Shown: positions 6,633 through 57,529, counted from the first letter of the whole stretch. The stretch is 60,662 nt of DNA, filler included, from Basidiobolus ranarum (GCA_040143965.1; 10 parts of 10 records of this genome joined end to end with filler, not necessarily neighbours in it), one strand, 5' to 3'. Numbers and translations are program-made. The notes: a model not told the origin generated them from the letters alone.

Positions 6633-7219
6633 AGAAAAATGTGGCTTAGTTAATCCAACGTAGTTGAGCCAAGCCACTAATCTGAATGATTTTATCAAAT
6701 ATAATTGACAATATTTTCGTAAAATTTGCAAATGATAAAAGAGCTTTACGTAACGATTTTTATTAACTCTACTTCAACATTCACCCTTCATATCTTAATG
6801 GTAAAGTACTAAGATCATTATCAAGTGCTAAATAAGAATTACTGGTGATTTAGTTTAATTAGTCGTAATGTTACAAAAAAGTGACCCTATTTATATTTTA
6901 ATTCCAAGTATTTTACTACAAGACACAAGGATATCAGATTAGCAGGTTGAGCACTTACCAAACTACTTCGTCCGCACAGAAGTACCATCAATAAGAACAA
7001 ACTGACATCAGCTCCAGGTTCTTAATAATATATTAACACTAAGCGATTGAAATGTGGTTTTGTGTAGGAACACATGCCCAGTCAAGGCTCAAGGCATAGC
7101 TGTAGATCCTTGGATATGCATATGTTATAATGTTTGGGTAGGGCAATAAGGTTACAAACGAGGCCTCACTTGTGCTATAAAGAGAAATAAATATCCAAAA
7201 TTCCTTACATTCCCATACC

Positions 7220-8360
7220 ATGCACTACTGGATAATTTCGTTCATATTGTTGGTTTACGGTCTAGTTGCTGTTAGTAAACGACCAATCAATTTACACGAG
7301 AATGCCAGTGATGATGCTAGTGAGCCATCAAATTGTGAGCTTGTTTCATATGATTATCATATGAAAGAGCTGTCAGCAGATTATATAATTGTTGGTGGAG
7401 GTACTGCGGGTTCTGCTTTGGCACGGTACTTGACTTTGAATACTAAACTTTTGGTTCTGGTGGTTGAGGAAGGAGTAGACTTTACTCCAGAACAGATAGA
7501 AAGAAAATCTAACGTTGATATTGGTGGTCACAATACGACCGAAAAAATATCCATCAAAGCTCAAAAGGAGGTGATTCTTTCGTCAGGCGTTTATGGATCG
7601 CCTCCTTTACTAATGCTATCTGGAGTAGGTCCTCGTCAAGTTTTAGAGAGCAGTGGCATCCCAATCGTGCGTGATATGCCACGTGTAGGTGAGTTAGTAC
7701 TCTCGCCACTAGGCGTTGCTTTATTTCAGAGCAACCGCACTTTCCGTCAAAACGATCCCAAAGTTCTGACGAGCCCAGAGGCGTATCGAGAAGGGAAAGA
7801 GGAAGGGACAGGGCCATTGAATAGCATCATGGACACTACCTTCAATATACATAAAACTGACCCAGGCCTATCTAAGCCTGATATTCTCCTTCAAAATAGC
7901 GAGGCTATGAATTCCCCTAAAGTTAGCTTCATAGGTATCTGCACTTTGTTGGATCCCCAAAGTCGTGGTAGGGTATTTATCAATTCTAGGGATCCATACT
8001 AAACACCGCTTGTAGAGCCTGCATATTATCAAGATGAGCGGGACCATCGCACTATGGCCAAGTGCTTGAATCTAGTGCATCAAGTATTTGTCCAACCTCC
8101 TTTGAAATTCCATATTAAAAATACCTTTTCCCACCACGTTTACTCCCAACTGCCACCATCCTTACGGAACGATTTCCATGGGTATGAATGAGAGCGCACC
8201 CTTGAGCCCCGACCTGAAATTGCGGGGTTTCACAAATCTCAGAGTCTTTGATGCTTCTATTCTACCTGGACCTTATCGTAGTGGATCCACTCGACTTTTA
8301 TATGGGCTTGCCCCCAAGGCAGCTTCGTTGATTCTTGGTGGGCCTATTGACAAATATTAA
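7220..8360 (+). pseudogene. GMC oxidoreductase pseudogene (secreted type)
   Basis: Signal-like N-terminus, DYIIVGGGTAG, AQKEVILSSG..GSPPLLMLSGVGP, LLDPQSRGRV and HHPYGTISMG..DLKLRGFTNLRVFDASILP. The core between the FAD motif and KEVILS (including GGSSxxN) is missing, there is an in-frame TAA at 8000-8002, and a frameshift near 8140. Confidence 0.8.
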
Positions 8361-10905: not shown

Positions 10906-11331
10906 TTATTGAAAGATGGAAGCGATGTTGATGGTATGACCAACTTTCACCAACACTTCTTGAGCACGATCGACGCTATCTTGCTTTACCAGAAGATAGT
11001 CAGTATCATAGGTGCTAATGGCAAAGATAGAAACCTCAGCGTCGGCCAAGGTGCTACTCAGGTTAGCCAAAATACCTATCAACGAGAAATCTAATGGTCC
11101 TTGCACCTTCAAGCATCTCCAATCATTTTCGTAGGCGACTAATCCAGAGTCACGCAGGGTTTCGATGGTCTCATTGCTGGGTTGGATGGTGACGATGGAG
11201 AGCTCCTCAGGTGTACGAGTGACGGAATAGAATGGAAGGTCATCAAATATCCTGGGAACCGATGCTTTCGGGGCAAATTTGAGCACACAGAATTGCTCGG
11301 TGTACAGTTGAAGATTGAGGTGGATGGCCAT
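10906..11331 (-). CDS. Bacterial-type tandem ACT-domain protein (CASTOR/GATS-related, COG3603-like), intronless
   Basis: FYSVTRTPEELSIV, WRCLKVQGPLDFSLIGILANLSSTLADAEVSIFAISTYDTDYLLVK; 141 aa. Confidence 0.85.
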   Translation of the reverse strand: MAIHLNLQLYTEQFCVLKFAPKASVPRIFDDLPFYSVTRTPEELSIVTIQPSNETIETLRDSGLVAYENDWRCLKVQGPLDFSLIGILANLSSTLADAEVSIFAISTYDTDYLLVKQDSVDRAQEVLVKVGHTINIASIFQ

Positions 11332-11586
11332 TTTAGATCGATCTTGGTCTACTCCTTACTCTCGGTTTATTTATAGAAAGCACGCTACTGCGGCAATGGT
11401 TATCTGGAACCAAAATGGGCAACCGATATCACGAAGCAGACGTTGATTTGTCGAGAAGAAACAAAAAATATACAAACATTTATTAAATAAGATTGGATTT
11501 AGAAGTTAGATAGTATATGCAAAAAGTGGTGTCGTACACAGACGCACACACACGCAAGGTGATTGTTTCTATGATAAAGGGAGGCT

Positions 11587-11973: not shown

Positions 11974-13398
11974 CTCAAAGTGCTGGTAACATCTTCTCCT
12001 TCGTCCCAGACATCAGTAAAGCCAAATCCGCTGCCAGTCATATCATTAATCTTCTGGATCGTCAACCTTTGATCGATGTTTCNNNNNNNNNNNNNNNNNN
12101 NNNNNNNNNNNNNNNNNNNNNNNNNNTTAATTAATTAANNNNNNNNNNNNNNNNNNNNNNNNNNNNNNNNNNNNNNNNNNNNTAATCTCACATAGCTATT
12201 CAAAACTCCACTTTTCTAAAGTTCCTCCAAACAGCCCATATTTTCCCAATATAGCTAATAGTATCTGACCTAGTGGGGCCAGTATAATAAGAACCTAAAT
12301 ATTGGTCAATCTTGCTCAGCCTTTTTCCTTTCCAATACTTTGTTTGATTGCTCCATGATTTAGAGCTTCCAATCAACTTTCCATAGTGGTGGTAAATTTA
12401 TGTACTTCAACTTCAACGTATCTTGGGGCCTGCTGGTACCTGTGGCTAAGATTGTGTGTTTGTAGAAAACTGTACATTTATAACTCCCTGAGTAGTAATT
12501 CAAAGCATCAAATTCTGCAATAGCAGGTAAAGAGCTGGCCATAGTGGTAGTCAAAATATGACTTATTGGTCACGATTGGGCATAATCCACCTTGGTAATT
12601 AGTAAAATTTGATGTAAACCACAACTTGAATGCATTGCTTTGCTGAAATAAAAATGTATATTCAGGTCGATGCTGGAGCCGAATAACACCAATCAACAAG
12701 GTATCTTCCTTGGGTGCAAAGGATATTTGGGGGAAGCTTTGGCAGTTTAGGACAGAGTTGATTTTTACATTTTTGTAAAATTCTGCATTCCATTCGAAAT
12801 TTGGTACTCCAAACTCAAAATCATTAACAATGAAGTATATCCATTATTTGTCTTGACTGCAATAGTTCAATTCATTGATTTATTGAATGTAGAGTCGCAG
12901 GTTGATGTGTCTAAGACTAGTTTGGTAATGTTGACAGATCAACACCTTTGTGAGAAATATTCAAATAGATGCTACGCGGGCTTATCAGCAATCCAGTTTG
13001 AAAAGATCAAATATGGTAAATAAAATATTTCAAAACTCCAGTGCTTTGGAATTATGCTCTGATATCATGCAAGACAGTCCCGGCCATACATGCAGGATGG
13101 TATACTTGAAAATTAAGCCGGTTCAATTTGCCATTATCTATCTATTGAGGCAAGCCCGATAACCGCTTGCATTATGTCTGCTTGTTAAGTACACAATAGG
13201 CAACAACTGCAGAGCCAAAATGCTACATGAAGTTATCATCACTTCTTTTCCAGATTGATGTAGATCATTGTAACTCCGTCAGATAATTCCTTATTCTTCC
13301 CATTCTTTCTTCTGGTGCTTGTCACTTCACGTATGCTGTAATGACTAGAATGGTTACATATCTTCACAGTTAGACTGATATTGGGGAGGTGATATTAG

Positions 13399-14010
13399 GC
13401 GTATGGAATTGAGCTTGAAGAGATCACTGTATCTATGTGGGCGCTATTAGAAACATCAATTCTAAGTGCACTGGCTCAAACTGTGGACTACAAGAAAATA
13501 TCATTCGGCCAAATTTCATGTTAGCAATCACTACAGACTTGATACCCGACTTTCTACCTGACACTGATGTCGCACAAACAGATATCGACTGCATTGTAGC
13601 TCAGATTCTGGGCAGGGTATCCAATATCCAGGATATCTATCCCCCCATGTCTTCACTTCAAGATGAAATATTGTTTCATCATATGATGCATTGGTGACTT
13701 CTATCTACTAACAGCTCACCTGGCCTTCCAACCCAGAAGCTTACTTGATCGTCACCTCGACGCAGGCCAGTGTGTAGTGGCTGGCCGGGATATCCTGCGC
13801 ATATCTTTTTTCAAAAGAAACTGTCGAAGTGGCGTGGCGTCATTACTGAACTGACATTGAATCTAAATGATGAATCCGATAAGAGGCAATTTGCGATCGC
13901 TTTGGCCCTCATCAACATCGTATGGGTTTAAATTAGGCACCATTGGTACGACTCATAGACACCCAAGACAATGATGAAAGGCTGGCAAGCGTACCAGAAA
14001 CATGTGACAA
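13399..14010 (+). pseudogene. Decayed bacterial-type NRPS module relic (A/T remnants plus dual E/C-type condensation domain start)
   Basis: Across frameshifts and stops: [135 protein letters not shown]. These are colinear with LTQADIDRIV...NIQDIYxLSPLQDGILFHH...LLDRYL..VVxRHDILRT...QVVWR...RFDPR..RxDLxQAPL. Confidence 0.75.
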
Positions 14011-15388
14011 ATTCGATGTCGTAACCACAATACTGCAACCCAATGGTTCGTAATACTCCGTGCTCACCCCTTACATGAAACATGGATCATCAAAACACTC
14101 GATATAGTCATCGTATCCCTTGAGTAGTACGACATCGAAGGTGCAAGTCAATACTATATCTCTAATGTTTTCTAATGCCGAGCAGTGTACATCTTAAGCC
14201 AAATCTGCGATTGGGCAAGTCAATTTGATGTATAGTATAGAAGCCTCCCAAGTGGCATCAACATTGCAGGGATAAGCGTCTTTCGTATTCATTCAGATAG
14301 TGAGTGAATATTTCTATCTTGGTTCTTAAAGGTAGTGTAGAATGATCAACAAACTCCTATGACTTGGAAGATGAGCCATTTAACTCCTCATGAAGCAGTA
14401 CAGCCTTCAATGACCGGAGCTCATAGTATATTGTGCTATGGGTTATATGCAGTCACTTTTCAAACTGATGAAAACCCCAAATATATGTGATGAAAAGAGA
14501 AGTGTTTATAAATCACTAAGGAAATCATTGTAATGTACGCATTATGTTTACACGTTACACAATGACTTAGTGAGGTTAACTCCGTGATTTCATGTTCGCA
14601 CTGCCCAGTTTGATGCAAATGGTTATGATTGTAGAAGAAAAATCTACACCTTGCCCAGTATGCAACCTTACTCACTATATTCTATGCACCAGTGATCTAT
14701 GCTACTACGATGCATTAAATTCGGAAGAAAAATCAGAGCAAGTCAATCAGTGCTGACCTGGGATCATCTTTGGTGGATTCTTTGTAATGTAGATAGAAAG
14801 TCCATCCCAGACACTCTGCAAAAGGATTCCATCATTGTTCACTTTAGGAAACGTGTTCTGCCATGTTAAAAATATATCCAGAGTATGGATTCAGCAAAAA
14901 TTACCAACTTGATCAGAGTTGATTATGTATTCTGCAACTTCATGCATTGATATTACCGAACATGAATGTTTCGCTTGCTCCAGATCGAGCCTCATATTCA
15001 CATCCGCTTTCTTACCCGTATGCTGAGTCATTGCAGCACTTATCAGACTCTTTCGAAACATATATGAAGTCACTTGCTCGTCAATTCTAATACACAGTCA
15101 ATATTTCCACGTATCATCATAGATAGTTTGTCTTCAAAGCTCTTCTCGATACTAGCATCCCACCTTTGCTTGTTGGTACTGTAGCACAGCACTAGGACAT
15201 TTGGACAACCCCGACCTGTAAGCACTCCTCTTACTTTCATACTTTGATTTGTATTTGAGATTTTTCTTAGACCAAGGTGATTAGTCTCATTTATCTGAAC
15301 CTCACTGACTGATTAGCGATCATTGTTCCAACTCTGCTAGAATTTTCTATAAAACCAATCCATCTACAATCGCCATCCTCAAGTAGAA

Positions 15389-18169
15389 ATGACTCCATTC
15401 ACCCACCCAAAAACGTATCAGCTATCCGCTGTACAAACGGAAATTTGGCTAGCACAACAACTCAACCCTGAAAGCCCTATCTACAATATTGCTCAGTTCA
15501 TAGAAATACCTGGCATCGTAGACCCAACTTTGTTCGAGGAAGCTTTGTCGCAAGTACTAATGGAAGCCGAATGCATGCGACTACAGTTCATAAAAGGTGA
15601 AAATGGTGTAGAGCAGTTTGTCGGTCCTTTGAATTGGACATTGCCCTTGATCGACGTCAGTACTGATGCTAATCCACAAGAAGCCGCTGAAGCTTGGATG
15701 AGAAATGACTACGAGCAGCCTATGAATCTTCAACACGGCTTAAAGTTTAGATACGCCCTACTAAAGGTTGCAACGCATAGGTACCTTTGGTATCAATGCA
15801 TGCATCATATTATCTTTGATGGATATGGTGCCGTACTTGTTTTACAACGAGCCGCTCAAATCTATAGTGCACTTGTCAAAGGCACTGCTGCGCCAAAATG
15901 TTCGATGAAGCCACTATCCTTTCTTCTTCAGAGTGATATAGATTATCGCAATTCCTCCCAGTTTACCAAGGATCAGAAATATTGGCTTGAGCACTGTAAG
16001 GATTGGCCAGAGCCTGTGACGCTTACTGGTAAAAAAGCGGTCTCCGTACACTTACCTATTCGTCAGACAATTCATTATTCCTCTCAATCCGTTTCCACTC
16101 TCTCTTCTGACCCTCGTCGCTTCACTTATGCGGTGATTGCTGTCATAGCTATATATCTTCACCGTTGGACTGGTATTGAGGAGGTGACATTAGGTTTCCC
16201 AGTTAAGGCTCGCTTTGGCGAAGATCGTCACATCCCTGGCACCACATCAAATGTCCTACCCATCCGAGTCACTGTACAACCTGGCATGAGCCTTTCATCA
16301 TTGATCGAACAGGTAGCACAGGAGGTTCAATTAGGATTGAGACACCAGCGTTACCGAAGTGAGGAGCTTAGGCGAAATCCTCGGTTAGGGCGAAATCAAC
16401 ATTTATACGGGCCTACAATCAACTTAATGCCATTTGACCGTGATGTGTCTTTTGGACAATACCAATCGACAGCGCACAATCTCCTTACTGGGCCGATAGA
16501 CGATCTAGCAATCAATATATATGTTGGATGTAATGGTGGGCCCCTACGAATCGATTTTGCGGCAAACCCCACCCTCTACAGAGCAGATGAATTGATAGCA
16601 CATCAACGTCGTATCCTAAACCTCTTAGACACCCTCGCCACAAATCCATCATTGCCAGTGACCGCTGTGGGTATAATTGACATGAAGGAGAGGCAAAAGT
16701 TACTTTTCGAATTGAACGAGACCACCATGCAATATCCTGACCATCAGTGTATTCATCATCTTTTTGAGGAGCAAGTTGCTCTTAATCCAGAAGCCACTGC
16801 AATCGAATACGCAAATCAGGTATTAAGCTATGCGGAGCTGAATTCGCAAGCTAATCGTCTGGCACATTATCTAATTGAGCTTGGAGTTCGACCTGATGAG
16901 CGTGTGGCAATATGCGTAGAGCGGTCGTCAGCTATGATAGTAGGACTACTGGCTATCCTGAAGGCTGGTGGTGCGTATGTCCCTCTTGATCCAGCCTATC
17001 CACCGGAACGACTCAACCACATTCTCACTGATGCGGCACCATATATTCTGTTAGCTGATGCGTCTGGACGTGCTGCATTGAGTAAGACATCTCTCGCCTC
17101 AATGACTGTACTTGACCCAAATATACTGGTGGGATCATTAACTACTAATCCACGCATCTCTGAACTCTCCTCGCACCATTTGGCCTACGTGATTTATACT
17201 TCTGGTACTACTGGGACTCCAAAAGGCGTGATGATCGAACATCGAAACTTGACTAATCTCTGCATATGGCACAATAGTACATTCAGCGTAGGTACGGGCT
17301 CTAAAAGCTCTTTAACAGCAAGAGTTGCATTTGATGCTAGTGTATGTGAAATATGGCCCGCTATCATCGGTGGAGCCACACTAGTTATACCAGATCATTC
17401 AGTTTCTCATGATATACCTGCTCTACTACAATGGTGGGGTCAAGAAAATATCGATGTATCCATTTTAGTTACTCCTCTTGCTGCTATAGTTTTAGGTGAG
17501 AATCAACTTCCCCAGACTTTACGTTACTTGTTGACTGGTGGTGATCGTTTCCCCTATTCACCAAAATCACTACCCTCTGGATTCGCAGTAATGAATGTCT
17601 ATGGTCCAACTGAAATCACAGTTTTAGCTACTTCTGGGCAATTAAAAGCTGATGATAACCAGCCTCATATCGGTCGACCAATCGCAAATACACGTATTTA
17701 TCTACTGGATCCTTATGGTCATCCGGTCCCATTAGGAGCAACCGGTGAAATGTACATTGGTGGAGCGGGTGTGGCACGTGGCTATTTGAACCTTCCTGAG
17801 CTGACTGCTGAACGATTCCTTCCAGATCCATTTAGCATGATTGAAGGATCACGGATGTACAAGACAGGCGACTTGGCTCGTTACCTACCAAATGGCAATC
17901 TGGAGTTCCTGGGCCGTAATGACTCTCAGGTCAAGATTCGTGGTTATCGCATCGAGCTTGAAGAGATTGAAGCTCATCTTGTTGACCACCCACAGGTGAG
18001 AGAAGCAATGGTTCTTGCCATGGGTGATGAAGGTAATAAGAGACTGGTCGCATATGTTATCGCTGACCCAGAGGAGCACCTCGCTCACTCATTACGCTCG
18101 CACTTAGCTTCGAAGGTACCAGACTTCATGTTGCCTTCCGCCTTCGTACGCGTTGATACCTGGCCATTA
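15389..18169 (+). CDS. Nonribosomal peptide synthetase, bacterial type: starter condensation domain + adenylation domain; 3'-truncated
   Basis: Intronless, more than 920 aa. LSAVQTEIWLAQQL..YNIAQFIEI, HHIIFDG, A-domain cores LSYAELN, LKAGGAYVPLDP, YVIYTSGTTGTPKG, FDAS, NVYGPTE, GEMYIGGAGVARGYL, YKTGDL and GRNDSQVKIRGYRIELEEIE. Confidence 0.95.
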
Positions 18170-18396
18170 NNNNNNNNNNNNNNNNNNNNNNNNNNNNNNN
18201 NNNNNNNNNNNNNTTAATTAATTAANNNNNNNNNNNNNNNNNNNNNNNNNNNNNNNNNNNNNNNNNNNNTTTGGACATTAACTCCTGCTTTAATATTAGT
18301 AGCTATAGCATTCCCATCTTTCAAATTACTTTATCTAATGGATGAGGTAATAGATCCAGCCATGACTATAAAAGTAAATGTTGGGGGCGCCAGCGA

Positions 18397-20433
18397 GTGC
18401 AAAATGTCGATCCTAAGCATATGATGAAGCGCTTTGTTCCTATTATCTCTTGGTTACCAAGATACAATCGTAAGTGGTTGCTTGGGGATATCATAGCTGG
18501 ACTTACTGTAGGTATCATGGTTGTGCCTCAAGCCTTGGCTTATGCTTCACTAGCCTCACTTCCGGTCCAATATGGTTTATACTCTTCGTTTCTGGGTGTC
18601 ATGATCTATTGCATCTTCGGTACATCAAAGGATGTTACTATCGGACCATCCGCTATTGTTTCTCTGTATGTTGGTGTTGCGTTGAAAGATCTTGTAGAAA
18701 AAGGGCAAGATCCAGTTGCTGCTGCTGTCACTATGGCTTTCTTATCCGGATGCTTTTGTCTCATCTTGGGAATATTACGCTTGGGTATCATCATGGATTT
18801 AATTTCATCTCCAGTCACTCTTGGTTTTACTTCAGGTGCTGCCATCACTATCCTGGTCAGCCAGGTACCTGCACTTCTGGGTATTAAAAATGTAGTTGTT
18901 CAAGGTCCTATTCATACTGTCCTCAAATCCATTTTCTCCGATCTTGGAAGGACAAGATCTGAAGACACTATAATCGGATTTATATCCATTGCTTTCTTGA
19001 TGTCGTTGAAATATATATCGGATAGATTCGGTCATGTTCATCCTGTTATCAAGGTCCTTGGTGTCGGTCGTAATGCCGTTTGTGTTGTTGTCTTCACTCT
19101 TACGGCGTATATTATGCATGTTGCGTTCGGAGAAGACCGCATCATCTTAGTTGGTACCATTCCTACTGGTCTACCCAAGCCTACTCTTCCCAATCTTGGA
19201 TCTGGTCTACTTGGTGATGTTATGGCACCATCTATTATCGGCGCGCTGGTTGCTATTTTGGAGCATTTTGCCGCTGCTAGAACTTATGGCCGCCAGAACC
19301 ATTACAAGATTGATAGTAGTCAGGAACTCATCAGTTTGGGGATATGTAACATTTCAAATTCTTTCTTTTCGTCCTACCTATGCCCCGGAGCTCTTTCTCG
19401 AACCGCGGTCAATTCTCAATCTGGTGTCAAGACACCTCTAAGTGGAATCGTTACCGGTGTGATTGTCATTCTTTCACTGAACTTCCTACCACCTTTGATT
19501 TACTATGTTCCCAAGGCCAGTTTAGCTGCCATTATTATGACCAGTATATATTCACTTATTGTTGGCTACAAAACATTCTGGAATTTATGGAAAATCCAAG
19601 CCACGGATATGATTGCTTCATTGCTGGCATTTTTGCTGACTCTGTTTACGAACATCCAAACTGGTATTGAAGTCGCAGTTGCTTTTTCTCTGCTTATTAG
19701 TCTTCAACGCATCGCACGTCCTAACTGGCAGATGATTGGTCCGGTCGAAAATATGGATGGAGTTTATGCTGATCGTGCTAATTCTGAATATCAAACCATC
19801 TCACCACCTGACGGCATAATTATTTTCCGACTATCCGAATCTGTTAGCTTTTTAAATGCAGAATACTTCAAAGGAAAAGTACTCAACGCTGCCTATATCG
19901 AGACTGATTCCTCAGTAGAGGTAGCCTCATCCTGGGCTGATCGGGTTTGGTCCGATGACACAGAAGCTCGAATCTCAAGAATGCGCAATAGCTTCAAAAA
20001 GGATATGCCAACAACACAGCAGATGGGGAGTAAAGCACAGCTAGGCAACGACATAGCAGAAAAGATTCAAATTGACGAGCCTTCGTACCCATATCTTAGA
20101 TCAGTCATTCTTGAATGCAGTGGCATCAATCATATCGACTCTACAGGCATTCAAACCTTACATGACCTTAAAGCTCAATTGATGGAGTACTCTGGAAATC
20201 CATTGTTTGAACTCCATTTTGTTGGACTTCAGCCTGAAGTTCTATCGCGCCTTGCGCAATCAGGCTTTACTCGCTCCCCCGAAGATCCACCAGAAGAGAA
20301 GCATCGCTATGTACATCTTACTGTCAAAGAAGCCTTGAAGTGTGCTGACCAAATTCCACCATTATACCGTCAACAAAAGCAACACTCTTTGGAGAAGGAG
20401 GATTTTGAGGAGCACCATATCCATATAGTCTGA
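18397..20433 (+). CDS. SulP/SLC26 sulfate permease with STAS domain; start uncertain (ATG 18421 or an upstream exon)
   Basis: [78 protein letters not shown] motif IDSTGIQTL. Confidence 0.93.
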
Positions 20434-27203: not shown

Positions 27204-29534
27204 TTAGATATCTGAGAACTCAAGCCTGATTTTACCATTCTTGTAAAGTACGTCGTTAGTGTCATTTACTTTAGAAGGACTGGAGTCTACTGATTGGGGC
27301 TGTTCATAGCGACGTTTTGACGGACTCTTGAAATTGTTAGGATAGGTGTGAGCATAGTTGGGCTCGAGATTTATGTCTGGAGATTCTGGGATTTGACTAG
27401 TGAAGTTCTTCAAAAGTTTTCGGAAGGCGATTTGAATTTGCTGGACCTAATGCATAATTGTCAGTGCATGCAAAGCAACGATATGAATATGTGGAAACTT
27501 TCACTCTAGCTGCCAGTTACCTTAGTTACATCCCTAGCGAAAATACGAATAACTATCTCTTCAAAATGTTCGGGAACAAGGTAGCTGACTTTCGTCTTTG
27601 GAATCGAGAACGCTTCTGAAAAACAACCAAAAATATTTAGTGTCCTGCCTCCCTAGATGCTGTAAAAATGATTTTCTTGCTACCATCGCCGTTGAATCTG
27701 GAGAAGAATTTAATAGAGTCCACTGGATTTTGATTTTTTTTCCCGTAGTTGATAGATAGCCATTCAACAATAACATCGTCAAGTGATATGTTGTCTCCAG
27801 CTTTTTGTCGAGAAACGATTTCTGCTTCGTTAACCATAGACTTTAAAACACAGCCAGAAATGATCAGATTAGCTACAACTAAAAATATGAATGGGTGCGA
27901 GCCACCTACCTTCGTCAAATACTGCTTGAGTTCGCTCGGAATTATGAATTCGTCTACAAATTTGTATAGTTGTCGCTGTCTAATACGTTTAATGATTTTC
28001 CTAGCAGGAAGAAGATCCTATCGAGAAAGGAAAATTTGGTAGTTAGAATAAGAAATATTATATCCTTCGGTATCACTGAGATCCTCACATCTGTTTTGGA
28101 TCGCTCGATTTGTTTCAAAATATCATCAGTCAGATGCAAATAGTCTTGAGGAGTTTCGATCGCCTTGGAAATCTCAAGATATGGATCTGCAGCAAGCATC
28201 GCATCAGTCAACATGTACTCGATTGACTTGCCTGTTTTCATAGTAAGAAAGGTAGAGTTAGTCGGACTAGGTTGCGATTGTTTACCAAGACAGTTAAGCT
28301 GCTACGCACCCACACGATGAGTGTATATTCTTTTGAAAAGGCTGTATCTAGTATGGAACATTTCATACAAATTATACACCTCCTTTTGATGGAAACAAAT
28401 CTGATTATCAATCACACGACTGAAGGTCATCAATCTGGCACCAGGAGAAAAACAGTCAGCTCAATACTCTGGAGCATACTCCGCACAGTCACAATGCCAC
28501 TATACCTTGATGAATCATAACTACTCTTTATGCCAAGGTTGTAGCAATCACGCTCAATGTAGTCAAATTTGTCAACGTCAACAGAGTTTCTTTTGTTGGC
28601 TACAATATCAAACAGAAAACGCTTCTCATGCTGTTGACTGAAGTAAAACCAACAGTACCGTTAGCAACTATATTTCCATCGTAGCAGCATGGCATATCAT
28701 AAGTAAACGCTCTTACCTAACCGATCTGGATTCACCCGTAATAAGATCTTTGATAAAATCAATTTCTTGCTTGTCGATATCGATGTAGTTCTCTTCTATT
28801 AAATTCTCGAGCATCATCTCAGAGGCTTGTTCGTGGGACCAAACAATATCAGGACTGTGGAGAATGTCACAAAATGAAGATGAAGTTATTTTTTGATGAA
28901 AAGGCTGTAAATTAACATCATGAAAAGCTGGAAACTTACCGAGAACGAGGAATAAATTCGTTATCGAAAATGTGACTAAAAGGCCCATGTCCTACGAAAA
29001 AAACTTAGTTACCGAGTGTACTTGCACGAAACTATTCAGTGCTCTGTTATATACACTGATAGTAAACTCTACCCAAATCATGACATAGTCCGGCCAATTT
29101 CACACATTTGATATCTTGCTCGTCAATTTCTAGCTCTGGTTGACTGGATTTCAATCTCTCTATGAGGTTTCCAGCCAAGTGGGAGACACCTGAGAAAAAT
29201 CAATTGGAATATTAAGTCATTGAGTAAGAAATTAATACATGAAAATAAAATTCTCACCGATGGAATGCTCAAATCGGTTATGACTAGCTCCAGGAAAAAC
29301 AAAATACGCAGACCCGAGCTGTTTCAGATCGCGCAGACGTTGAAACTGTTCTGTATCAATAACGTCTAAGCAGTGCTCGTCGATGTTGATGTAACCCTTT
29401 AGTATGTAAGTAGAATATTGTTAATCAGTAAATAAGATAATCTCGAGCAAAAAGCATTGGATTAGCTTCAATCAATACGATCTCGAACGTACATGGATAG
29501 GATCGTTAACGTATTTAGTTAGTCTTGTATCCAT
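27204..29534 (-). CDS. SAMHD1: SAMHD1-like HD-domain dNTP triphosphohydrolase (no SAM domain), multi-exon
   Basis: [105 protein letters not shown] and RQLYKFV. Confidence 0.9.
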
Positions 29535-37178: not shown

Positions 37179-37785
37179 TCAGTTTGAAGTTGCGTTTGTA
37201 AACGCAGTTGTAGCAAAACCTATTCAAAATCAGTTAGACAAAAGTATCAACAAAATGGACCCAATTTCCACGTACCAATTCTTTTGTTTGTGGTGTCATA
37301 CACAGTGTAAAATCTTTCTAAGAATGCTAGACCCAAAATGAAGTCCAATCCTTGTCCGGAACTGGTTCCTTGATCTCCAAAAGCAAGATATATTTCATTA
37401 GCTTTTCCACCTATCTGACTGTTCATCGATCGAGGAAATATACAGGCATTTGCGGTGAGCTCCAACGTTGTACCCTCGATGGTGATGAAGAGTGGTTGCA
37501 GGGCATTGAATTGGGCTGCAGTTAGCCTTGGTAATCCTGTTGCTTGATCTAATACCGCAACTGTGGCGTGCATGAATCTTTGGAAGGCTTCAGTAGGAAG
37601 TAACACCAATGATGTCGCCGAATCAACTATTCTCTGGGTTTTTGACATGATAACAGTGGTACCTCCGTAACGCATGGAGCCATCAATACCCCAGTAGTGA
37701 CTGGCTGGTACAGTGGTGGTTATTGGAGCGTAAGTAATTTTACCAGTGAATTTTGAGGAATCAGTGCCACCAAATGTAATTTATC
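37179..37785 (-). pseudogene. Pepsin-family (A1) aspartic protease, C-terminal lobe only, polyporopepsin-like
   Basis: G*ITFGGTDSSKFTGKITYAPIT..ASHYWGID..IVDSATSL..LELTANACIFPRSMN..GLDFILGLAFLERFYTVYDTTNKRI/GFATTAFTNATSN. In-frame stop at 37781-37783, D(T/S)G reads DSA, and no N-lobe exons are seen upstream. Confidence 0.75.
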
Positions 37786-40910: not shown

Positions 40911-42433
40911 TTAGTCATCTAATTTGTCCAACTCTATTTCATCCTCGGTAATGACCATATTTTTCGCGTCATTTTCATCATCAAGATCATCATAATGTCG
41001 AAAAGCATAGTAGAATCCGATACCGCAGATACCAGTTGCAACACTGATACCTCCATAATTCCAGACAAGATATGGATTCTGTGCTACTGGGGCAAGAGCC
41101 ATACCAATGGCAGCGGCAACAGCATTAGGGAACAAAGACAAGGCCATGACCAAACCTTTGAGTGAATTAGGAGCATGGGTATAAGAGTACTCAAGGGAGG
41201 TGATACTGGCGAAAATTTCCGACATGGCAATCAAGAAATACGATGGAATTTGCCACCAAACAGAAATTTTGGGTTCACCTCGATCCGCTGCGTTGTAAAT
41301 CCGTTGTTGAACCAAAGCAGAAGTCATCATGGCCAGGGCACCAAGAGCAAAGCCAATGGTAATACGCATCATAGGTCTGGGATTCATACGGATTCTGCGA
41401 AGGAAGGGATACACCAACGTATCCATGATAGGGATAAAGATAATGAGAGCAATAGGATCAATGTTACCAATGATATCATCCGGAATACTGGGAGGAAGTT
41501 GCATAGAAGCAGCTTGTGAAATCAAATTACTGGTAATTTGATTATAAGCGGTCCAATAGATACACATTGGGATGAAGATGAAGCAAGCCATCAGAGTCTG
41601 CTTGAGGCCATCGACGAAGCTATCATCCCAATACTTGTAGGATTTCTCCTCATCAGTCTCTGGGCGCACCCCTTCTGGTGAGTTAGTTTTGGCAGCATCA
41701 AGGTAATGACGTGGTTTTGGGTTGGAACCTTTCTCACGCTTAAGAGCAAAGCGAATGCAATGATAGGCCTTTACAATAGTGGACTCACCACTTGGTGGGA
41801 TTCTGACGTAATACTTCGAGCCGGACACGAATACCATCAGTGCAACAGCAAACATACAACTAGGAACCATGTAAGCAAGCCAAAATCCAACATGTAACTC
41901 AAGTTCTGGAGTGATGACGCCACCAATCAAGGCGCCAACGTTGATAGACCAGTAGAACCAATTGTATAAATGTTGGGTAGTGAGTGTAGGATCAATGATC
42001 ACCTTCTCACCTTTGACTACGCGAATCTCAGGCTTGCTTAGTCTAAGCTGATCGGCAGCCATGGGTGATACCAAGGGTTTGATACCACCAGTTCCAAGAC
42101 CGATGATAATCAACGAGAGAATGTACCCGGGAAATCCTGCCCCAATCTCAATGGCCTTTGGAATAGATGTGCATGTCAAAAGCAACCAACCACACATGTA
42201 AATAACACAGAAAATGATAATGGTTCGGTATTTTCCGAGGTAACGATCAGAGATGATGGCTCCTAGTAGCGGTGTAACATAACAGAAGAATGTAAAGAAT
42301 TGTTTTAAGGCATCGGCGGTAGATTGACCTTTTCCAAGTGCACCAGCCTGATGTTTAAGATCGGGTGGAAATTGAACATAGTTTGTGAAAGGAGCAGAAC
42401 CTCCGTAGTAGGCAAAACGTTCACAGAACTCGG
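40911..42433 (-). CDS. PTR2: POT/PTR2-family di/tripeptide transporter, 5'-truncated
   Basis: EFCERFAYYG, FFCYVTPLLGAIISDRYLGKYRTI, GLGTGGIKP, FYWSINVGAL and WWQIPSY..SEIFASITSLEYSYTHAP. Confidence 0.92.
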
Positions 42434-43067
42434 CTATGCAATGGTTATTTAATTAGTTTACTATCAACAATAGTNNNNNNNNNNNNNNNNNNNNNNNNNN
42501 NNNNNNNNNNNNNNNNNNTTAATTAATTAANNNNNNNNNNNNNNNNNNNNNNNNNNNNNNNNNNNNNNNNNNNNTTGTAATATGGTGATATGCTACGAGT
42601 TCATGTTGTTAGTTCACAGCATCCATTATTTCCGAGAATCATGTATATTGCTACCGACATTTTGACTTGTCCAAGTTGTCAACTACAGCTATATTTACTT
42701 TCCCAATCAGCGTGCTTGTAAGACATTGGCTAATAGTTTACGATACGAAGCAATTGAAACTCTAAGCCTTACTTATGAAGTATGTAATATGAAGAGGCAT
42801 TTGACCAAAAAATTTCTGGAAGATCTTGAAACAGGTATTTCAACCAAGAAAGCATTTATTTGTACCACTCCGGTGGCTGAGAATCGGTAACTGAAACATT
42901 TTCAACCATGATGGGGAGGTTTTTTGACCAACATCTGGGTGCATACTTGAATTGTGTATCTAACAAGTATATCTGACGAAATATAACAAGTATGAGTAAT
43001 TTATGGTCAAATACCGCGGAAAATAACCAAACTGTAAATCTGAGGGACTTGTCGATGATGTACATTG

Positions 43068-46494: not shown

Positions 46495-47466
46495 TTATGG
46501 CTTTTCTAAAAGAATGGCTTCGTGATGATAATCCTCCGCCTTGACATAGCGTTGAGCAGACTTTAAAACTATCTCACGAGCTTTTTGGAAAATGTCATCA
46601 CCAACCCAGGCTCCATACAGCTCATCGACCTTAAGGGGCTTGACCGCTTGCCAAATCTGATCAATGGCCTTAGGAGCAAGTGGAACTAAATTGGGATACG
46701 ACCACATAAAGCTTACAAAATTCCGATCGGGAAGAACTTTGATGGTGTCGCCGACGAATAATTCTGTTGAAAATTCAAACAACATTAGAGAGATGCATGG
46801 ATGCAGTATTCGAGCCAATTATACTTACTATTTTCCCAATTCATAACGCATGAACCATCAAAATGGCCTCCGCAACGAACGACCTTGGCATTACCATCCA
46901 GAAGGTCCAAGGAATCACCATCCCATATATTCAAACGTTTGTCGGGGTTCATAATCCATTCCTCATCAGCCTTGTGAATGTATATAGGGATATCATTAAA
47001 CGCTTTGCTCCACTCAACCATGCTAAATAATAGGTGAATTAGCATATGGATTGCTCTAAAATTATTGGTTTCCTAATTACCTAGAATAATAATGGGGGTG
47101 TGAAATTGCAATGGCTGTTAAACCACCCAACTCTTGGATTTTCTTGACCGTTGCATCATCGATCAGCGAAATGCAATCCCACAAAATATTCCCCTTTGGA
47201 GTGCGGATCAAAATTCCTCGTTGCCCGATGGCGAACTTGGGGGTGGAGAAGATACTATATATGCGCTCATCATTAGCAAAGGGAACAATCTCATTGTGAT
47301 GACTCTCTTGAAGCTCTTTTAGCGTAGTCCATTCTTGACCAGAAACGGGTACGTATTGGCGTTCATCCAAGCAAATAGGACACTCTTTCTGAGTAGGAGA
47401 AGGAAACTGTGTTCCACATATGACACACATTAGTGGAAAACCATTATTAGAACTTATAGCAGACAT
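46495..47466 (-). CDS. Metallo-beta-lactamase-fold hydrolase (YmaE-like), 3 exons
   Basis: Exons 47466-47081, 47022-46829 and 46763-46495. CVICGTQF..CPICLDERQYVP..QEWTTL, PKFAIGQR, NILWDCI, AISHPHYY, GGHFDGS, GDT, SFMWSYPN and YGAW. Confidence 0.88.
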
Positions 47467-48638
47467 TGTTTGCGAGGGATTTCAATAGATGACGAATTGC
47501 ACTTACAGGAGGCTATTAAGCTGTTAAATACGTGTCCAAATCACTCTGGAGTTGAACCAGAATTAGTAAGATGAGAGAGTAAACCTGTTTGTAAATTACT
47601 CATCGCTGTATGATTGGCTTTACGAAGATTAATGGTAGTGTGAGTGCCTGCAAATCTATTCAATGAACCCTTGTACAATTCGCCATGGCATTGCCTTGAT
47701 TAATAATCGAGTTTGTAAGCCTTCAAGTTGTGACTACCAAATACTTGAGTAGGGTGGATGTCCGTTTCGTCATTGGATGGCATCAGTCGTTTTCTAAGCA
47801 TAACATAAAGAAACAACATTCTCATGAACTCAACCTAATCACAGGGTTTCAGATAAACTTCGAATATTACTTTAAAATATGATGTCAGCGAGCACATTCA
47901 GCCTCACTTGACTTGAGTTGCTGTTGCATTAGCTTTGATGCCAGCTTAATTTTCGCTGATGCTTCCAATTCTTCCAAGAACATTACTGGTGAGGGCTTAT
48001 ATTTCTGAAGTGCCAATTTACTTGTTCAGTATGGCAATAACATGGTAAACACAAATGCATGAGCATCTCACCATTCAACTCATCAAATGCCTACATATCA
48101 TCAGGAATATATTGGGCAGAAGCATTAAATAACACCATCTCTACTTACTAGGTTTTCAAAGTAACTAAGGATTTAGGGCATTTGAGTCACCAATACTGAT
48201 TGGCCTACTTTACTCTTCTAACTGGTAGCCTGTATGAATCCATTAAGTTGATGAATCAATACCAGACATCTATGATTCAATTTTACGGTCATAAACAGAA
48301 AGCCTATACGATAATACCAAAGAAACCAATCTATTCAGAAGTACTCTGATTGAATACCAGATGAAACTTGAACAACAAACCATTATTCATTGTTGAACAA
48401 GTATGGTTTTAACTTCGGAAAATCTTTTAATCGATCTTCAATGATTCATCGATTCATTGAACACAGGATCTCTCCTCTTGGGTTCGGTTCTCTTGGTAAC
48501 ACTACACTTAAGGATTTGTCCAGGTGGTTTTCTATAGTNNNNNNNNNNNNNNNNNNNNNNNNNNNNNNNNNNNNNNNNNNNNTTAATTAATTAANNNNNN
48601 NNNNNNNNNNNNNNNNNNNNNNNNNNNNNNNNNNNNNN

Positions 48639-48810: not shown

Positions 48811-51439
48811 AGACCAAGCTGAAACTATCTATTGACACTATTCAAAATATCACATCTGGGACAAGGTCTCAAGCATCAATCACCAATGGATATATGACAA
48901 AGCTCAAATCAATACCAATCCCTGTGGTGAATATTCCAAGCAGAAAACCAACAAGTGATAATCCTCTCTCAAACTTCACTACAAGTACTGAAACCAATGT
49001 GAACAAACTATTTTATGATATTATGGCTTCAAGCAGACATACAAGTCGTGAAACATTAGGCAGCTCTGAAAATGTATCAATTTATACCAGAAAACCTGAT
49101 AATTACTCTGAGGATACTGAAAATTTGGAACCTGCTGCTGAAAATCAGCATATTATCTCTGCCAATGAAAAATATGGTAAGCCAAAAAAGTACATTTTTT
49201 CAGCCAATCAGGAATCTGGAAAATTGGCTCAAAAACAAGGTAAAAATTTTATGACCAATCACATACCTAAGTAATATCCAACTCTCAATTTGGCTGACAT
49301 CAGGTTCAATCAATTATTGGAAGTATGCAATCAATCACAACAAGTATTCAATTAATTACAAGATTCAGGCATTCAGGTCTCAAAAAGCCTACTGATGGGA
49401 ATTCAGAAACATCCTCTAAGTGAAACATCTGACCACTCTACCAAGGACTTTTGTTATCTCAAATAAGAGCATGAAATCAACAGATTCAGTTCAGAAAAAT
49501 GGTCAAAAATATCTGCTTGTATAGCATTATGTGAACCAGAAAATTTGACACAAGCTCTGAAATCTGATGAAGCAAGAGAATGGAAAAAAGCCACTGATGA
49601 TGAAATTCACTACCTAATCAAGAATAACACATGGATCCTTGTGGACTTACCTACAGGAAGAAAAACTAATGGTAATAGATGGGTGCTGAAACTGAAACTT
49701 AACTCAGATGGATCTATCAACAGTTACAAAGCAATATTAGTAGTAATGGCTATGTTCAGAAACATGGCTTTGACCATGATGAAATATTTTCTCCCATTGC
49801 TATGTTTACCTCAATTGGAGTAATCCTAGCCATTGCTACCCACCAAGGAATACTGATTGAACAAATGGATGCCAAGACAGCATTTCTCAATGGAAAAATT
49901 GATGAAGATACATATATGGATCAACCAGAAGGATATATTGCGAAAGGAAAAAACATCAAGTATGCAAACTACAGAGAAGTCTATATGGTCTGAAACAGGC
50001 TCCTTGTGCATGGAATACCAAAATCAATCAGATCTTCATGAAACATCTTTTCCATTCTAGCAAAGCTGAACACTGCATATACTGCAAGACTATCAAAGCC
50101 ACCAACATCATAATTGCTCTCTATTTTGATGATATCATAATAGTAGTAATTGCTCAAATCTGATAAACAAACTAAGAACTGTTTATCTGCCAAGTTTAAA
50201 ATGCAAGCTTTTGGATCACTAGCATAGTGTCTTGAAATGCAGATACATCAAAATTCCACTGTTGGAACACTCTGTATCACACAAGAAAAATATATTGGAA
50301 ATGTTTTAAACATATTCAATATGTCAGAATGTAAAACAGCGTCAAATCCACTATGTATGCTGAAACTCACTAAGGATATGGAACCAAAGACCTCTGAAGA
50401 TATTGAAATAATGAAACATATTTCTCACCATAGTGCAGTTGGAAGTCTGAAATAAGCAACAACTGGTACCAGGCCTGATATTGCTACAGCAATAAGCAAA
50501 ATAAGCAAATATATGGAAAATCCTGCAATGGGACATTAAATAGCTGTGAAACAGATAATATGCTATCTGAAAAGAACAATATATCATGGAACTCAATTTA
50601 GTAAGCAGTACAACATGTCACTAATTTTGGATGAATATACTGATATGGAGTGGGCTAACAATACAGAAGACCATAAGTTCAGAACTGGAGATGTGTTTAA
50701 GCTACCAGGTGGGCCAATAAGCTGGATTAGGAAGAAACAGCAAACTGTTGCATTATTAACTACAGAAGCAGAATAAATGGCAAGCTCTTTGGCTGTTCAA
50801 GAAGCTATATGGCTAAGGAGTCCTCTCAATGAGCTAGGATTTGATCAAGTTGATCCTACCTCATAATATCAAGATAATATTAGTTGTGTTAAGATCACCA
50901 AAATTCCTGAGCATCACAGAAGGATGAAACATATTGACATAAGACATCATTTTATAGGAGAGAAAGTTCTTGACAAAACAGTGAAGTTTATTTATTGTAA
51001 TACTGAATATGTGTTTGCAGATATACCAGCAAACCACTCAAAACTTCAAGCTTTGAGAAGTTAAGAGCAGCAATAGGCATTAGTGAATATAAGCACAATG
51101 CTGAATAGGAATTAAGGGAAGGTGTTGAATAATTAATTTTTATTCAACATCAAAGTTAACTTTAGTTATGATATATAAATCCAATACTGAAAACAACTTA
51201 TCTATAGCCTCTATATTCTAAATAGAAATATCTCTGTATCTATATAACAAGTATATCTTATGACCCCCACTTATCTATTGTATCTTATTATAAAAATTCC
51301 TGAATATCACAAATAATTGATTCATTTTTCTACTATATAAGTCACCATATACTCTTGAGAATAAAGGAACTAAAACACACTATTGTAAGTTGCTTCTAAT
51401 ACCCAAAGTCTACCGCCATTATATCAAGATCCTCCAACA
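48811..51439 (+). mobile_element. Degenerate Ty1/copia element 3' half: RT-RNase H, PPT (about 51111-51122) and 3' LTR family C (51123-51439)
   Basis: EPENLTQAL..EWKKA..KNNTWILVDLP..RWVLKLK; QMDAKTAFLNG..YMDQPEG; SLYGLKQA; YFDD; GGPISW..KKQQTVALLTTEAE; KHIDIRHHF. Many stops and frameshifts. AAGGGAAGG precedes TGTTGAA...CCAACA. Confidence 0.92.
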
Positions 51440-55471: not shown

Positions 55472-57529
55472 TATTATAGGGCTGACTGAAAAATTGCAGA
55501 CAAACTGACAAAACCCGAAGCTAATTATAAATTTAACTGACTTTGATATAATTGATGACAAAGTTTAGCAAAAATATATAAGAGAAACTAAGTGCATATC
55601 AGGACATGTGCTAATTGGCAGTTTGTTCAAATTTTGTTTAATTATTAAGCAATCACATTTTCAACCTGGTTTTAGTATTGCTGTCTCTATTAGAAAGACC
55701 AACTTGATTGCTTCAACAAAATCTATGCTCCTCTTAAAGCTCATTATTGAAAATATACATCACTATGGTGCAACTGTACTGCCAAAATCCTCACTGTAGC
55801 ATCATGGTAAAGTATATATGCAGATTTCGTTATTACTACAAAAAAATACCTTGTCTCTTTAGACTGGTAATACATAAGCTTTCTTGGAGGCCTTTGAGTA
55901 CAATAATAATAAGTGATCTTATAAAACTTAATGGAGGTGATTATTTTGAATATATATGTACTGTATACAGAGAACTCTGGTTGAACCAGAAGTGTTTGAG
56001 CTGCCCAACTAATATTTGAGTGGACCATTTTATTCCAACAAACTGTTTAGTCATCAATGAAGCATGAATTTAAGATAGATATGGAATTTCAAAGAGCTAA
56101 CAACAACATGCTTCAAAAGTTAATGTTACCATCAGCAACCATATAGACACTTGTTCCATCATATTTACTCCAATTCTTGCTGCAATATGCAATATATGGC
56201 TGCCTAATCAACAAATGGATCTCATAATCAAAGCAACTCCGTTGGTTTGTACTTCTTTGGGTTGGGATTTCCAAGTCAAAAGGTGATAATTTTTAAATAT
56301 TTCTTGTCAGTCATTTGTGAGGTGAGCGCTAAAAGGAGGTGCCATTACCGGTCAGTTAGTCCTGCATATCCAAGGTATCCAATACACTATAGTATATCAA
56401 TTATTATCTCACACTAGTGACAACTTTCCAGCTGCCACTCAATCTATATATTTATTACAACTTGCCATATCACAATTATTATTGTCAATCTTGGCAATCG
56501 TCGAATTGGGTGATATTTGCAGTAGAAATATGAGTGATTATCTGTAAAGCTACCGACTGGAGCCTATAAGCTACTAGAAAAATGATCGATTAGCAAAGAA
56601 GTTCTATGAAATGAATCGGTGTGAGCTTGCAAGGTATGTCGCCATATTAAGATATGTACACAATTGAGAGCAATATTGGAAGCAATTAGCAGAATTGCGG
56701 TCAAAATATTGGTGAGAGTACTATGCAGGGTTAATTTGTATCACTTTGTAATTACAGATTCAACTTGGCTAAGAGAGTCATATATGCTCAAAATATATTC
56801 AAGTATGGATTTGGCTAACGAATGTTAGCTGACGTAGATGTGCTGCATGATATCGTTAGGTGTTAAAATATGACAAATAAGATAGAGATTGTAAACGCCA
56901 ACAAATGGATTGATTACTATACTGCCATTGTTTTGGCTTAGGATTGTAGGAAAGTTGAATGAAAATGTCTATTGATTAACCAAAGTAATCGATGCAGAAC
57001 CGGTTCAAAATAAGAATGTGCCAGCTTCCAAGAAGGCCCAATCTAGTACATCCGGTCCCATTCTGTACGACTGCTCCCTCCAATTCTATAGGAAACCTAT
57101 AAAATCTCTACCGACAAGCCACAAAATTGTATGCTTCCAGAAGTGCTTGTCAGCATCCAATATTAATAGTGGATTTTACTACCTTGAATCTACTCAGAGG
57201 TTACTGTTGCTCCAAATTATGTTTATGCTCTGTATGAAAAAAGCACATATACGAGCTCATAAAATAAGCTCTAGAGTGCAGCAGTGACATCTCATTTGAG
57301 CCCGGCTGAAATCTCCCACCAGCCGTAAGCAGTGGATGCGGTTGCGGTTGCTAATCAAAAACAAAGATGGAATATAATCTTCATCCTACGATCGTCTAAT
57401 TAGCTTCCAAATACGTTATAATTGGGTGCTGTCACAATCCTAAGCGCTAATCGAGTCACTCGATTTGGCAGTGCGTTCCAGCTGATGCTGATTTGGAATG
57501 AGATATGGCATGGCCACAGTAAAACTTTG

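Follow-up and report, generated by a model that had tools for sequence, protein, structure and literature searches.

The closest characterized counterparts of the gene described here are RzmA and HolA, the rhizomide and holrhizin synthetases of Mycetohabitans rhizoxinica. In their starter condensation (Cs) domains, R148 accompanies a two-carbon acyl chain (C2) in RzmA and A149 accompanies C8 in HolA, C8-CoA is a ligand of the RzmA R148A protein, and with Y138A the chain grows to C10-C12; neither cluster contains an acyl ligase or acyl carrier protein, and acyl-CoA is used directly in vitro (PMC7804268). The same full-length N-terminal Cs, with the same numbering, HHxxxDG motif, Q36 and Q136, opens a nonribosomal peptide synthetase (NRPS) gene of the fungus Basidiobolus ranarum, the 5' part of which lies on the plus strand at 15389..18169 of the window (the whole stretch of DNA analyzed, 60,662 nucleotides). 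This query gene has a gate alanine, as do HolA (A149) and RzmA R148A (PMC7804268). It differs from RzmA in possessing M138 and F143 instead of Y138 and M143, a different adenylation (A) domain, apparent residence in a fungal nucleus and, apparently, one or two modules compared with six or more in the RzmA and HolA synthetases. Another relevant bacterial system is symbiosin of Ca. Mycoavidus necroximicus, a lipodepsipeptide with 3-OH-C14 on a cyclic hexapeptide, for which Cs-based lipoinitiation has been proposed (PMC9769094); its NRPS comes from the same bacterial lineage as the relatives of the query, but the compound is made by the bacterium.

Bacterial-type NRPSs are already published for Basidiobolus; what is new is an intact Cs together with altered pockets. 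The preliminary description of this gene correctly noted such enzymes in Basidiobolus and Mortierella (PMC7466969; PMC9365243). The Basidiobolus "surfactin-like" NRPSs of bacterial origin have host-like composition and few or no introns (PMC7466969), and the query resembles them in its proteobacterial-type A domain, horizontal origin and host-like composition. That paper classified A domains only, uses the word "starter" 0 times in its main text and, in the text available, links no product. In Mortierella alpina, MalA, MpcA and MpbA are of endobacterial origin and contain Cs domains and domains for both epimerization and condensation (dual E/C), but their Cs are truncated and lack the His-His pair, and the MalA Cs is inactive (PMC9365243; bioRxiv 2020.08.21.262279). 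Compared with these published descriptions, the query Cs is full length and retains His-His. Further M. alpina Cs-containing NRPSs are listed in PMC9365243, which also cites an acetylating Cs in Aspergillus flavus, and an active Cs in a fungus is therefore not unprecedented. Counts of NRPSs and Mycoavidus-to-Mortierella transfers are reported in bioRxiv 2025.03.31.646025 and 2021.12.02.471044. The described Basidiobolus metabolites are cyclic pentapeptides, together with one patent peptide that has no available structure (PMC10964425). We found no published intact Cs or acyl peptide for Basidiobolus in a search that left most subscription journals, including the basidiosin papers, outside its range.

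Judged from its sequence, the query, although incomplete, probably encodes a working lipoinitiating NRPS whose ancestry is endobacterial. With moderate confidence, we read it as the 5' part of a functional nuclear B. ranarum NRPS that descends from an endofungal Burkholderiaceae ancestor and would attach a medium-chain acyl group to the nitrogen of a hydrophobic residue.

The open frame and its starter condensation domain

The window consists of ten contigs of ~6 kb each, joined by nine N44-TTAATTAATTAA-N44 linkers. Two of these linkers (12083-12182 and 18170-18269) flank the contig of the query, the second being an artificial separation between it and the contig of a sulfate transporter. Because the ten contigs are unlinked, the other genes in the window are not flanks of the NRPS gene, and neighborhood arguments that cross a linker are void. 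According to linker positions and contig placement, the only DNA linked to the gene is contig C8321 of the B. ranarum assembly (5,987 bp, 12183..18169, unstranded). A frame of 927 codons runs from the ATG at 15389 to the final base ahead of the linker (18169) without a stop codon. An in-frame stop at 15350-15352 precedes this ATG, which is kept in the paralogs, and the condensation domain starts at residue 8. Pfam identifies Condensation at residues 8-439 (E 2e-56), AMP-binding at 459-800 and AMP-binding_C at 859-926, and the NRPS thus begins with the Cs, its first A domain coming next. Upstream non-coding DNA at 14868..15388 (plus strand), ~79-83% identical to the paralogs by blastn and alignment, is a probable promoter, with a TATA-like TTCTATA ~40 nt 5' of the ATG in 5/5 aligned copies. 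Introns in the 5' untranslated region at ~15218-15316 are unsupported, the acceptor TAG not being kept in the paralogs. A public model for a B. ranarum hypothetical protein (P0242) has a Cs 100% identical to the query but splices away most of the final codons (~18033-18169) to end at 894 amino acids; we regard this 3' intron as an artifact of the contig end, since the frame stays open and paralog-like to the last base.

The C domain is a starter condensation domain of the RzmA/HolA type, as assigned by Pfam, matches to RzmA-Cs structures, and trees (residues 8-439, 15410..16705, plus strand). Residues 8-431 align without gaps to RzmA-Cs (7C1K/7C1H/7C1P) with E 1e-144 to 5e-143 and identical numbering. 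The next solved relatives, CdaPS1, ObiF1 and EntF, follow at E 7e-61 to 3e-51, elongation C domains match at E 4e-16 or weaker, and the dual E/C outgroup sits on a long separate branch of a quick Cs tree, so that by both E-values and trees the query clusters with Cs domains and not with LCL or dual E/C domains. Alignment to RzmA-Cs places the acyl-pocket residue M138, the catalytic HHIIFDG (139-145) and the gate residue A148 at 15800..15832 (plus strand), together with Q36 and Q136 elsewhere in the domain. The HHxxxDG motif is intact, and the preliminary description was right that a C domain with an intact catalytic motif comes first; every motif it quoted is present. By the RzmA rules, A148 and M138 predict a medium chain of about C8-C12, and the query Cs would probably transfer such a chain from acyl-CoA onto the amine of the first residue.

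Other combinations occur at these two positions. In the proteins P0253 and P0257, a Cs with S138/G148, and so with a roomy pocket, precedes an A domain whose code is Gln-like, which makes them candidates for a long-chain acyl-Gln start such as that of symbiosin.

The re-sculpted adenylation pocket

The A domain (residues 459-926, 16763..18166, plus strand) falls by Pfam, code mapping and tree into the proteobacterial Leu clade with the code DAWFLGNVV. Motifs A1-A9 are recognizable in it by what we take to be their consensus, and A10 is past the contig end. Its specificity pocket reads D-A-C-I-L-G-V-V-L (17333..17626, plus strand) by a mapping that, applied to close relatives, gives back DAWFLGNVV as published for Leu, and that slips at position 278 in distant A domains. 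Four of the nine visible residues differ from the clade code, namely W239C (17345), F278I (17462), N322V (17597) and V331L (17624). The preliminary description had read the same nine residues with a bracketed terminal Lys and had called the gene intronless; the contig stops ~5 residues short of the A10 Lys, which is thus outside the window, and the absence of introns holds for the 927 visible codons only. The altered hydrophobic pocket that it proposed is supported. The proteobacterial Leu domains with DAWFLGNVVK belong to the same clade as the query (PMC12283262), yet the query does not conform to that code, and four changes among nine are enough to make a Leu substrate doubtful. DAWFLGNVV(K) is the commonest Leu code (PMC12283262); DACILGVVL was not located in the text of the same paper, whose code tables may lie outside that text.

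How unusual is this pocket? We compared 833 distinct A-domain cores, a sample biased to the top search matches, of which 177 are at least 48% identical to the query and 162 of those read DAWFLGNVV. Among the 175 of these relatives that are not from B. ranarum, W239 is found in 171, F278 in 169, N322 in 166 and V331 in 167. Cys239 occurs in 3/833 cores: the query, its paralog on contig C4539 (DACIMGNIL) and one distant domain. W239C, F278I and V331L are common to the query and the C4539 paralog. In 60 sampled clade members, 95 columns are at least 90% conserved, and the query departs at nine of them where P0002, an uncharacterized Basidiobolus meristosporus NRPS, keeps the consensus; these departures comprise 4/9 code columns and 5/86 other conserved columns (Fisher p 0.004). 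In a quick tree of 85 cores, with the code columns kept in, the query groups with C4539 and with the first A domain of P0002 (DAWFLGNIV), sister to Mycetohabitans-type domains (SH-aLRT 97), and this group is nested in a 28-row DAWFLGNVV clade (SH-aLRT 98). The Leu-type assignment made earlier holds as membership of the Leu clade, but its Pseudomonas affinity does not, the nearest bacteria being the endofungal Burkholderiaceae Mycoavidus and Mycetohabitans. On this evidence, the A domain is a re-sculpted member of the Leu clade with an altered pocket.

In GrsA, larger side chains find room in a cavity that W239S creates (PMC10467612). Loss of both W239 and F278 suggests an enlarged pocket in the query, which probably takes either a residue bulkier than Leu, such as Phe, Tyr, Trp or Met, or hydrophobic residues with relaxed selectivity. 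The I-L-G core is common to the Phe domains MalA-A4 and GliP-A1 (codes from the supplement of PMC9365243). The A domain, recognizable as such and placed in its clade, would activate a hydrophobic amino acid and load it onto the thiolation (T) domain. It is unlikely, though the best surviving of the alternatives, that the same enzyme logic operates with an A domain that still prefers Leu or another branched-chain residue, giving an ordinary N-acyl-Leu product like that predicted for B. meristosporus. The clade is, after all, the Leu clade, with 5/9 visible code residues kept, and Leu domains of early-diverging fungi use odd codes, for example DFWNFGLIY in MalA-A1 (PMC9365243), so that drift of the code need not alter the substrate. 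Set against this are the 95-98% conservation of W239, F278 and N322 among the 175 relatives and the concentration of changes at code positions.

Paralogs, bacterial ancestry and probable nuclear residence

The query is one member of a paralog family. The B. ranarum assembly holds further Cs starts at 85, 84, 73, 47 and 44% identity to the query Cs, plus a 44-residue piece at 91%. The ratio of nonsynonymous to synonymous substitution (dN/dS) between the query and five paralogs is 0.13-0.25, at dS 0.5-1.1. On the query contig itself, 1.4 kb upstream of the NRPS gene and on the same strand, lies what is left of a tandem copy from this gene family, now decayed (13293..13993, plus strand) and composed of a Cs fragment at 13293-13400 followed by T and dual E/C fragments at 13423-13993. 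It is interrupted by stops and frameshifts, is found by tblastn with P0002 at E 1e-15 to 5e-4, and is 69% identical in DNA to paralog contig C4539.

This broken copy raises the question of whether the query is itself a decaying or silent paralog in a birth-and-death family, its pocket changed by relaxed selection and nothing made. Other paralogs have altered catalytic motifs (HRIIMDG, HRILMDE), and in B. meristosporus no expression was seen for one surfactin-like gene with two A domains (PMC7466969). The query, however, has 927 codons without a stop, an intact HHxxxDG, the low dN/dS just given and a short terminal Cs branch (0.055); its upstream DNA is conserved and its pocket changes are common to a paralog at dS ~1. 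We regard decay as quite improbable.

Slightly less probable again is an intact Cs that transfers acetyl only or nothing, because medium-chain acyl-CoA is scarce or the domain plays a structural part, leaving a free or acetylated peptide as in Mortierella. In M. alpina, MalA has an inactive Cs and is acetylated in trans (PMC9365243), and untargeted liquid chromatography-mass spectrometry of ten Basidiobolus isolates, in the text of the report, names cyclic peptide networks and not acyl peptides (PMC10964425). The Mortierella Cs are truncated and without His-His, however, whereas the query Cs is full length with a gate Ala. In addition, the five Basidiobolus Cs that comprise the query and its relatives at 67-85% identity have five different residues at position 138, as in only 2/340 columns, and A, A, F, G and G at position 148, the 138/148 pairs being M/A, I/A, T/F, A/G and V/G. 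Five states in five copies suggest that the acyl pocket is in use.

A second Basidiobolus Cs lineage, represented by L076 (C8087, 4414-6939) and L077 (C13, 1-1497), is the source of the HRIIMDG and HRILMDE motifs, in which the second catalytic His is replaced by Arg; public models of this lineage add ~155-170 N-terminal residues. Two paralog contigs, L074 (C1819, 2750-3170) and L078 (C2887, 1735-2180), have in common, upstream of the Cs gene, a low-complexity, repeat-rich open reading frame (ORF) region with 81% DNA identity, which the query contig lacks.

The best long relative of the query Cs is B. meristosporus CBS 931.73 ORX94939.1 (P0002, 2352 amino acids), 67% identical in the Cs and ~70% over Cs-A. 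Its layout is Cs-A-T-E/C-A-T-TE, with two C, two A and two T domains and one thioesterase (TE). P0002 represents the sister lineage of the query in both A and Cs trees, but it keeps the Leu code DAWFLGNIV in its first A domain and V138/G148 in its Cs, and it is complete, whereas the layout of the query is tentative. After P0002 come Mycoavidus proteins at 55-60% and Mycetohabitans proteins at ~42-52% identity in the Cs. An exhaustive search of 50% representatives returned the same top group, and a separate scan of genome contigs with the query Cs gave no match. In the two careful Cs trees, a Basidiobolus subclade (100/100) lies within a 100/100 clade whose other named members are Mycoavidus, Glomeribacter, Mycetohabitans, Paraburkholderia and probably symbiont-derived matches from fungal assemblies; the named rows outside this clade are bacterial and several other rows are metagenome records. 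The first careful Cs tree omitted 18/59 rows (long branches and near-duplicates), and the second used 28 of those 59 rows and 11 Mycoavidus loci. Monophyly of the two Basidiobolus Cs lineages received support of only 44/31 in the first. Neither the Cs nor the A domain clusters with fungal NRPSs; both fall in bacterial clades, in agreement with the bacterial origin first proposed.

The distribution of relatives supports well a transfer from an endofungal Burkholderiaceae lineage (Mycoavidus/Mycetohabitans), though not an exact donor, and such an affinity suggests that the gene was not given by free-living gut bacteria. The ancestor would have been acquired before the split of B. ranarum and B. 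meristosporus and duplicated afterwards. Mycoavidus as the specific donor was favored at SH-aLRT 95 in one quick mixture-model tree and is left open by the two careful trees. Matches filed under Podila and Linnemannia were not counted as fungal orthologs because two of their clusters at 90% are shared with Mycoavidus or Glomeribacter proteins; the others are singletons or occur in clusters with fungal names only, and their status is uncertain. P0345, P0346, P0347 and P0010, filed as Podila verticillata and Linnemannia gamsii, are probably endosymbiont DNA in fungal assemblies.

The gene looks nuclear and domesticated. Its GC content at third codon positions (GC3) is 0.383, compared with 0.379 for the SulP, 0.422 for the PTR2 and 0.365 for the GMC gene of the same window, and below that of 11/11 Mycoavidus Cs ORFs (0.46-0.60). 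The earlier reading of an AT-rich, host-like composition thus applies to GC3, but the overall GC of the ORF (0.456) exceeds that of the upstream 3.2 kb (0.391). This 3.2 kb contains no ORF of at least 150 amino acids, compared with coverage of 0.48-0.94 in Mycoavidus Cs loci. A related Cs gene of the B. ranarum assembly lies on a 54-kb contig alongside a Myb/SANT gene. DnaA was not found in this assembly, which may have been filtered, with the control positive in 13/14 genomes, and bacterial 16S was not found in it either, with the control positive in 14/14 genomes and a stricter first pass. The symbiont-like linkage that the preliminary description had thought should be checked was not seen. 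Co-assembly of a contig from a Mycoavidus-like endobacterium with the fungus is very improbable: the closest relatives outside Basidiobolus are endofungal bacteria, the query contig holds no fungal gene and the Podila and Linnemannia matches are likely to be contaminants of this sort, but GC3 and coding density are unlike those of Mycoavidus, DnaA and 16S were not found (subject to the possible filtering and the stricter 16S pass), and the Basidiobolus-only Cs clade covers two species.

The gene end, the predicted product and other features

How does the gene continue beyond the A domain? Its end is overlapped by no contig, and the last 30 nt match only their own contig at up to 2 mismatches, while for the final 470 nt identity to paralogs does not exceed 79%. 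The contig-end comparison covered a subset of the NRPS contigs: 54 ends were tried, 25 mapped to a module and two fell within 15 amino acids of A10. One of the two is contig C8337, which encodes T-TE, has a unique start, best matches the end of P0002 (68%) and begins 12 nt after the query end in register; the other is incompatible in sequence. Contig C10422 was rejected as a continuation, having the same register but a different sequence and a different C type. Within the family, two layouts are seen: Cs-A-T-E/C-A-T-TE (P0002, with C4539 showing A-T-E/C) and Cs-A-T-TE. The latter is exemplified by L004 (C11503) with L032 (C9888), joined by an exact 111-bp overlap, and by Mycoavidus P0244, a one-module Cs-A-T-TE enzyme 60% identical to the query in the Cs.

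If the T-TE of C8337, in register after a 12-nt gap, is indeed the continuation of the query, an N-acyl amino acid may be what the enzyme makes. We give about an even chance to the one-module Cs-A-T-TE form, with C8337 as its candidate end, in which the thioesterase would release an N-acyl amino acid. The two-module form with dual E/C, as in B. meristosporus, is somewhat less probable, and here release would follow the dual E/C module as an N-acyl-D-Xaa-L-Yaa dipeptide. The N-acylated peptide pathway first proposed thus keeps its bacterial-type starter C domain, but its product may be an N-acyl amino acid, and the gene belongs to a paralog family. That the product is uncharacterized agrees with the literature, in which the only Basidiobolus compounds we found described are the cyclic pentapeptides (PMC10964425). 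N-acylation by the query Cs is a predicted function. A role of the product as an amphiphile or signal in the amphibian gut is likely but speculative.

The A domain of C11503/C9888 is of the P0002 second-module type (75% in the core), as if module 1 had been deleted, and the Cs of C11503 shows A138/G148, a combination that was introduced into RzmA to obtain C10-C12. In P0002, residues ~460-600 and ~1530-1670, the N-terminal parts of its two A domains, look identical by eye, which suggests gene conversion between modules and offers a reason why such genes break in assemblies. Synonymous distances gave no clear pairing between the Cs and the TE paralogs.

Several points weigh against a functional, medium-chain N-acylating nuclear enzyme of endofungal ancestry as we read it. 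The gene is truncated, with the A10 Lys, T and release domains outside the window. The TE of C8337 is at dS 1.07-1.13 from its sister TEs compared with 0.41-0.63 for the Cs trio, although the TE range matches the dS of the query A domain to C4539 (1.12). Pairwise dN/dS is a historical average that would miss a recent loss of function. Nesting within Mycoavidus is tentative, and monophyly of the bacteria without Basidiobolus is not rejected (p-AU 0.18). Characterized codes do not settle the substrate, 5/9 residues being those of Leu DAWFLGNVV and 4/9 agreeing with MalA-A4 and GliP-A1, which have Phe codes. The rules for the acyl pocket derive from a single engineered enzyme, and donor specificity is, in its authors' words, "not very strict" (PMC7804268); F143 of the query has no tested equivalent.

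Given the truncated Mortierella Cs and the cyclic pentapeptides of Basidiobolus, an intact Cs predicts a class of compound for which the papers searched contain no report from the genus. At the positions that govern acyl length in RzmA, nature has provided a graded set in the paralogs, and in the A domain a highly conserved Leu pocket has been re-specified naturally; both can be assayed at low cost and would be useful for NRPS engineering and code prediction. More tentatively, an intact lipoinitiation module taken from a fungus-dwelling bacterium may have expanded to a family of one- and two-module enzymes making diversified N-acyl amino acids and dipeptides, with the query, through its new A-domain code, producing a medium-chain N-acyl derivative of an aromatic or unusual residue. 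If so, no active Cs of bacterial type would have been demonstrated earlier in an early-diverging fungus, and the fatty acid amides used by gut bacteria for host signaling would have a fungal counterpart (PMC13310621). The weight of the finding is limited by an incomplete gene that is one of many NRPS genes in its genome and of a type already published in the genus. The B. ranarum assembly contains at least 91 A-domain matches and 42 thioesterase matches, with many unusual A codes, a large and mostly fragmented repertoire.

Other genes of the window lie on their own contigs. Pfam identifies a SulP sulfate transporter with a STAS domain (18346-20433), ruled out as a cluster member by its separate contig, a PTR2 peptide transporter (40911-42452) and a GMC oxidoreductase fragment (7181-8002). 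By eye only, we recognized an ACT-domain-like protein (10906-11355), an HD-domain hydrolase in exons (27561-28991), an aspartic protease fragment (37247-37780), a metallo-beta-lactamase-fold hydrolase in exons (46495-47481), copia-like reverse transcriptase fragments (49467-49993) and transposase-like remnants (57440-58242).

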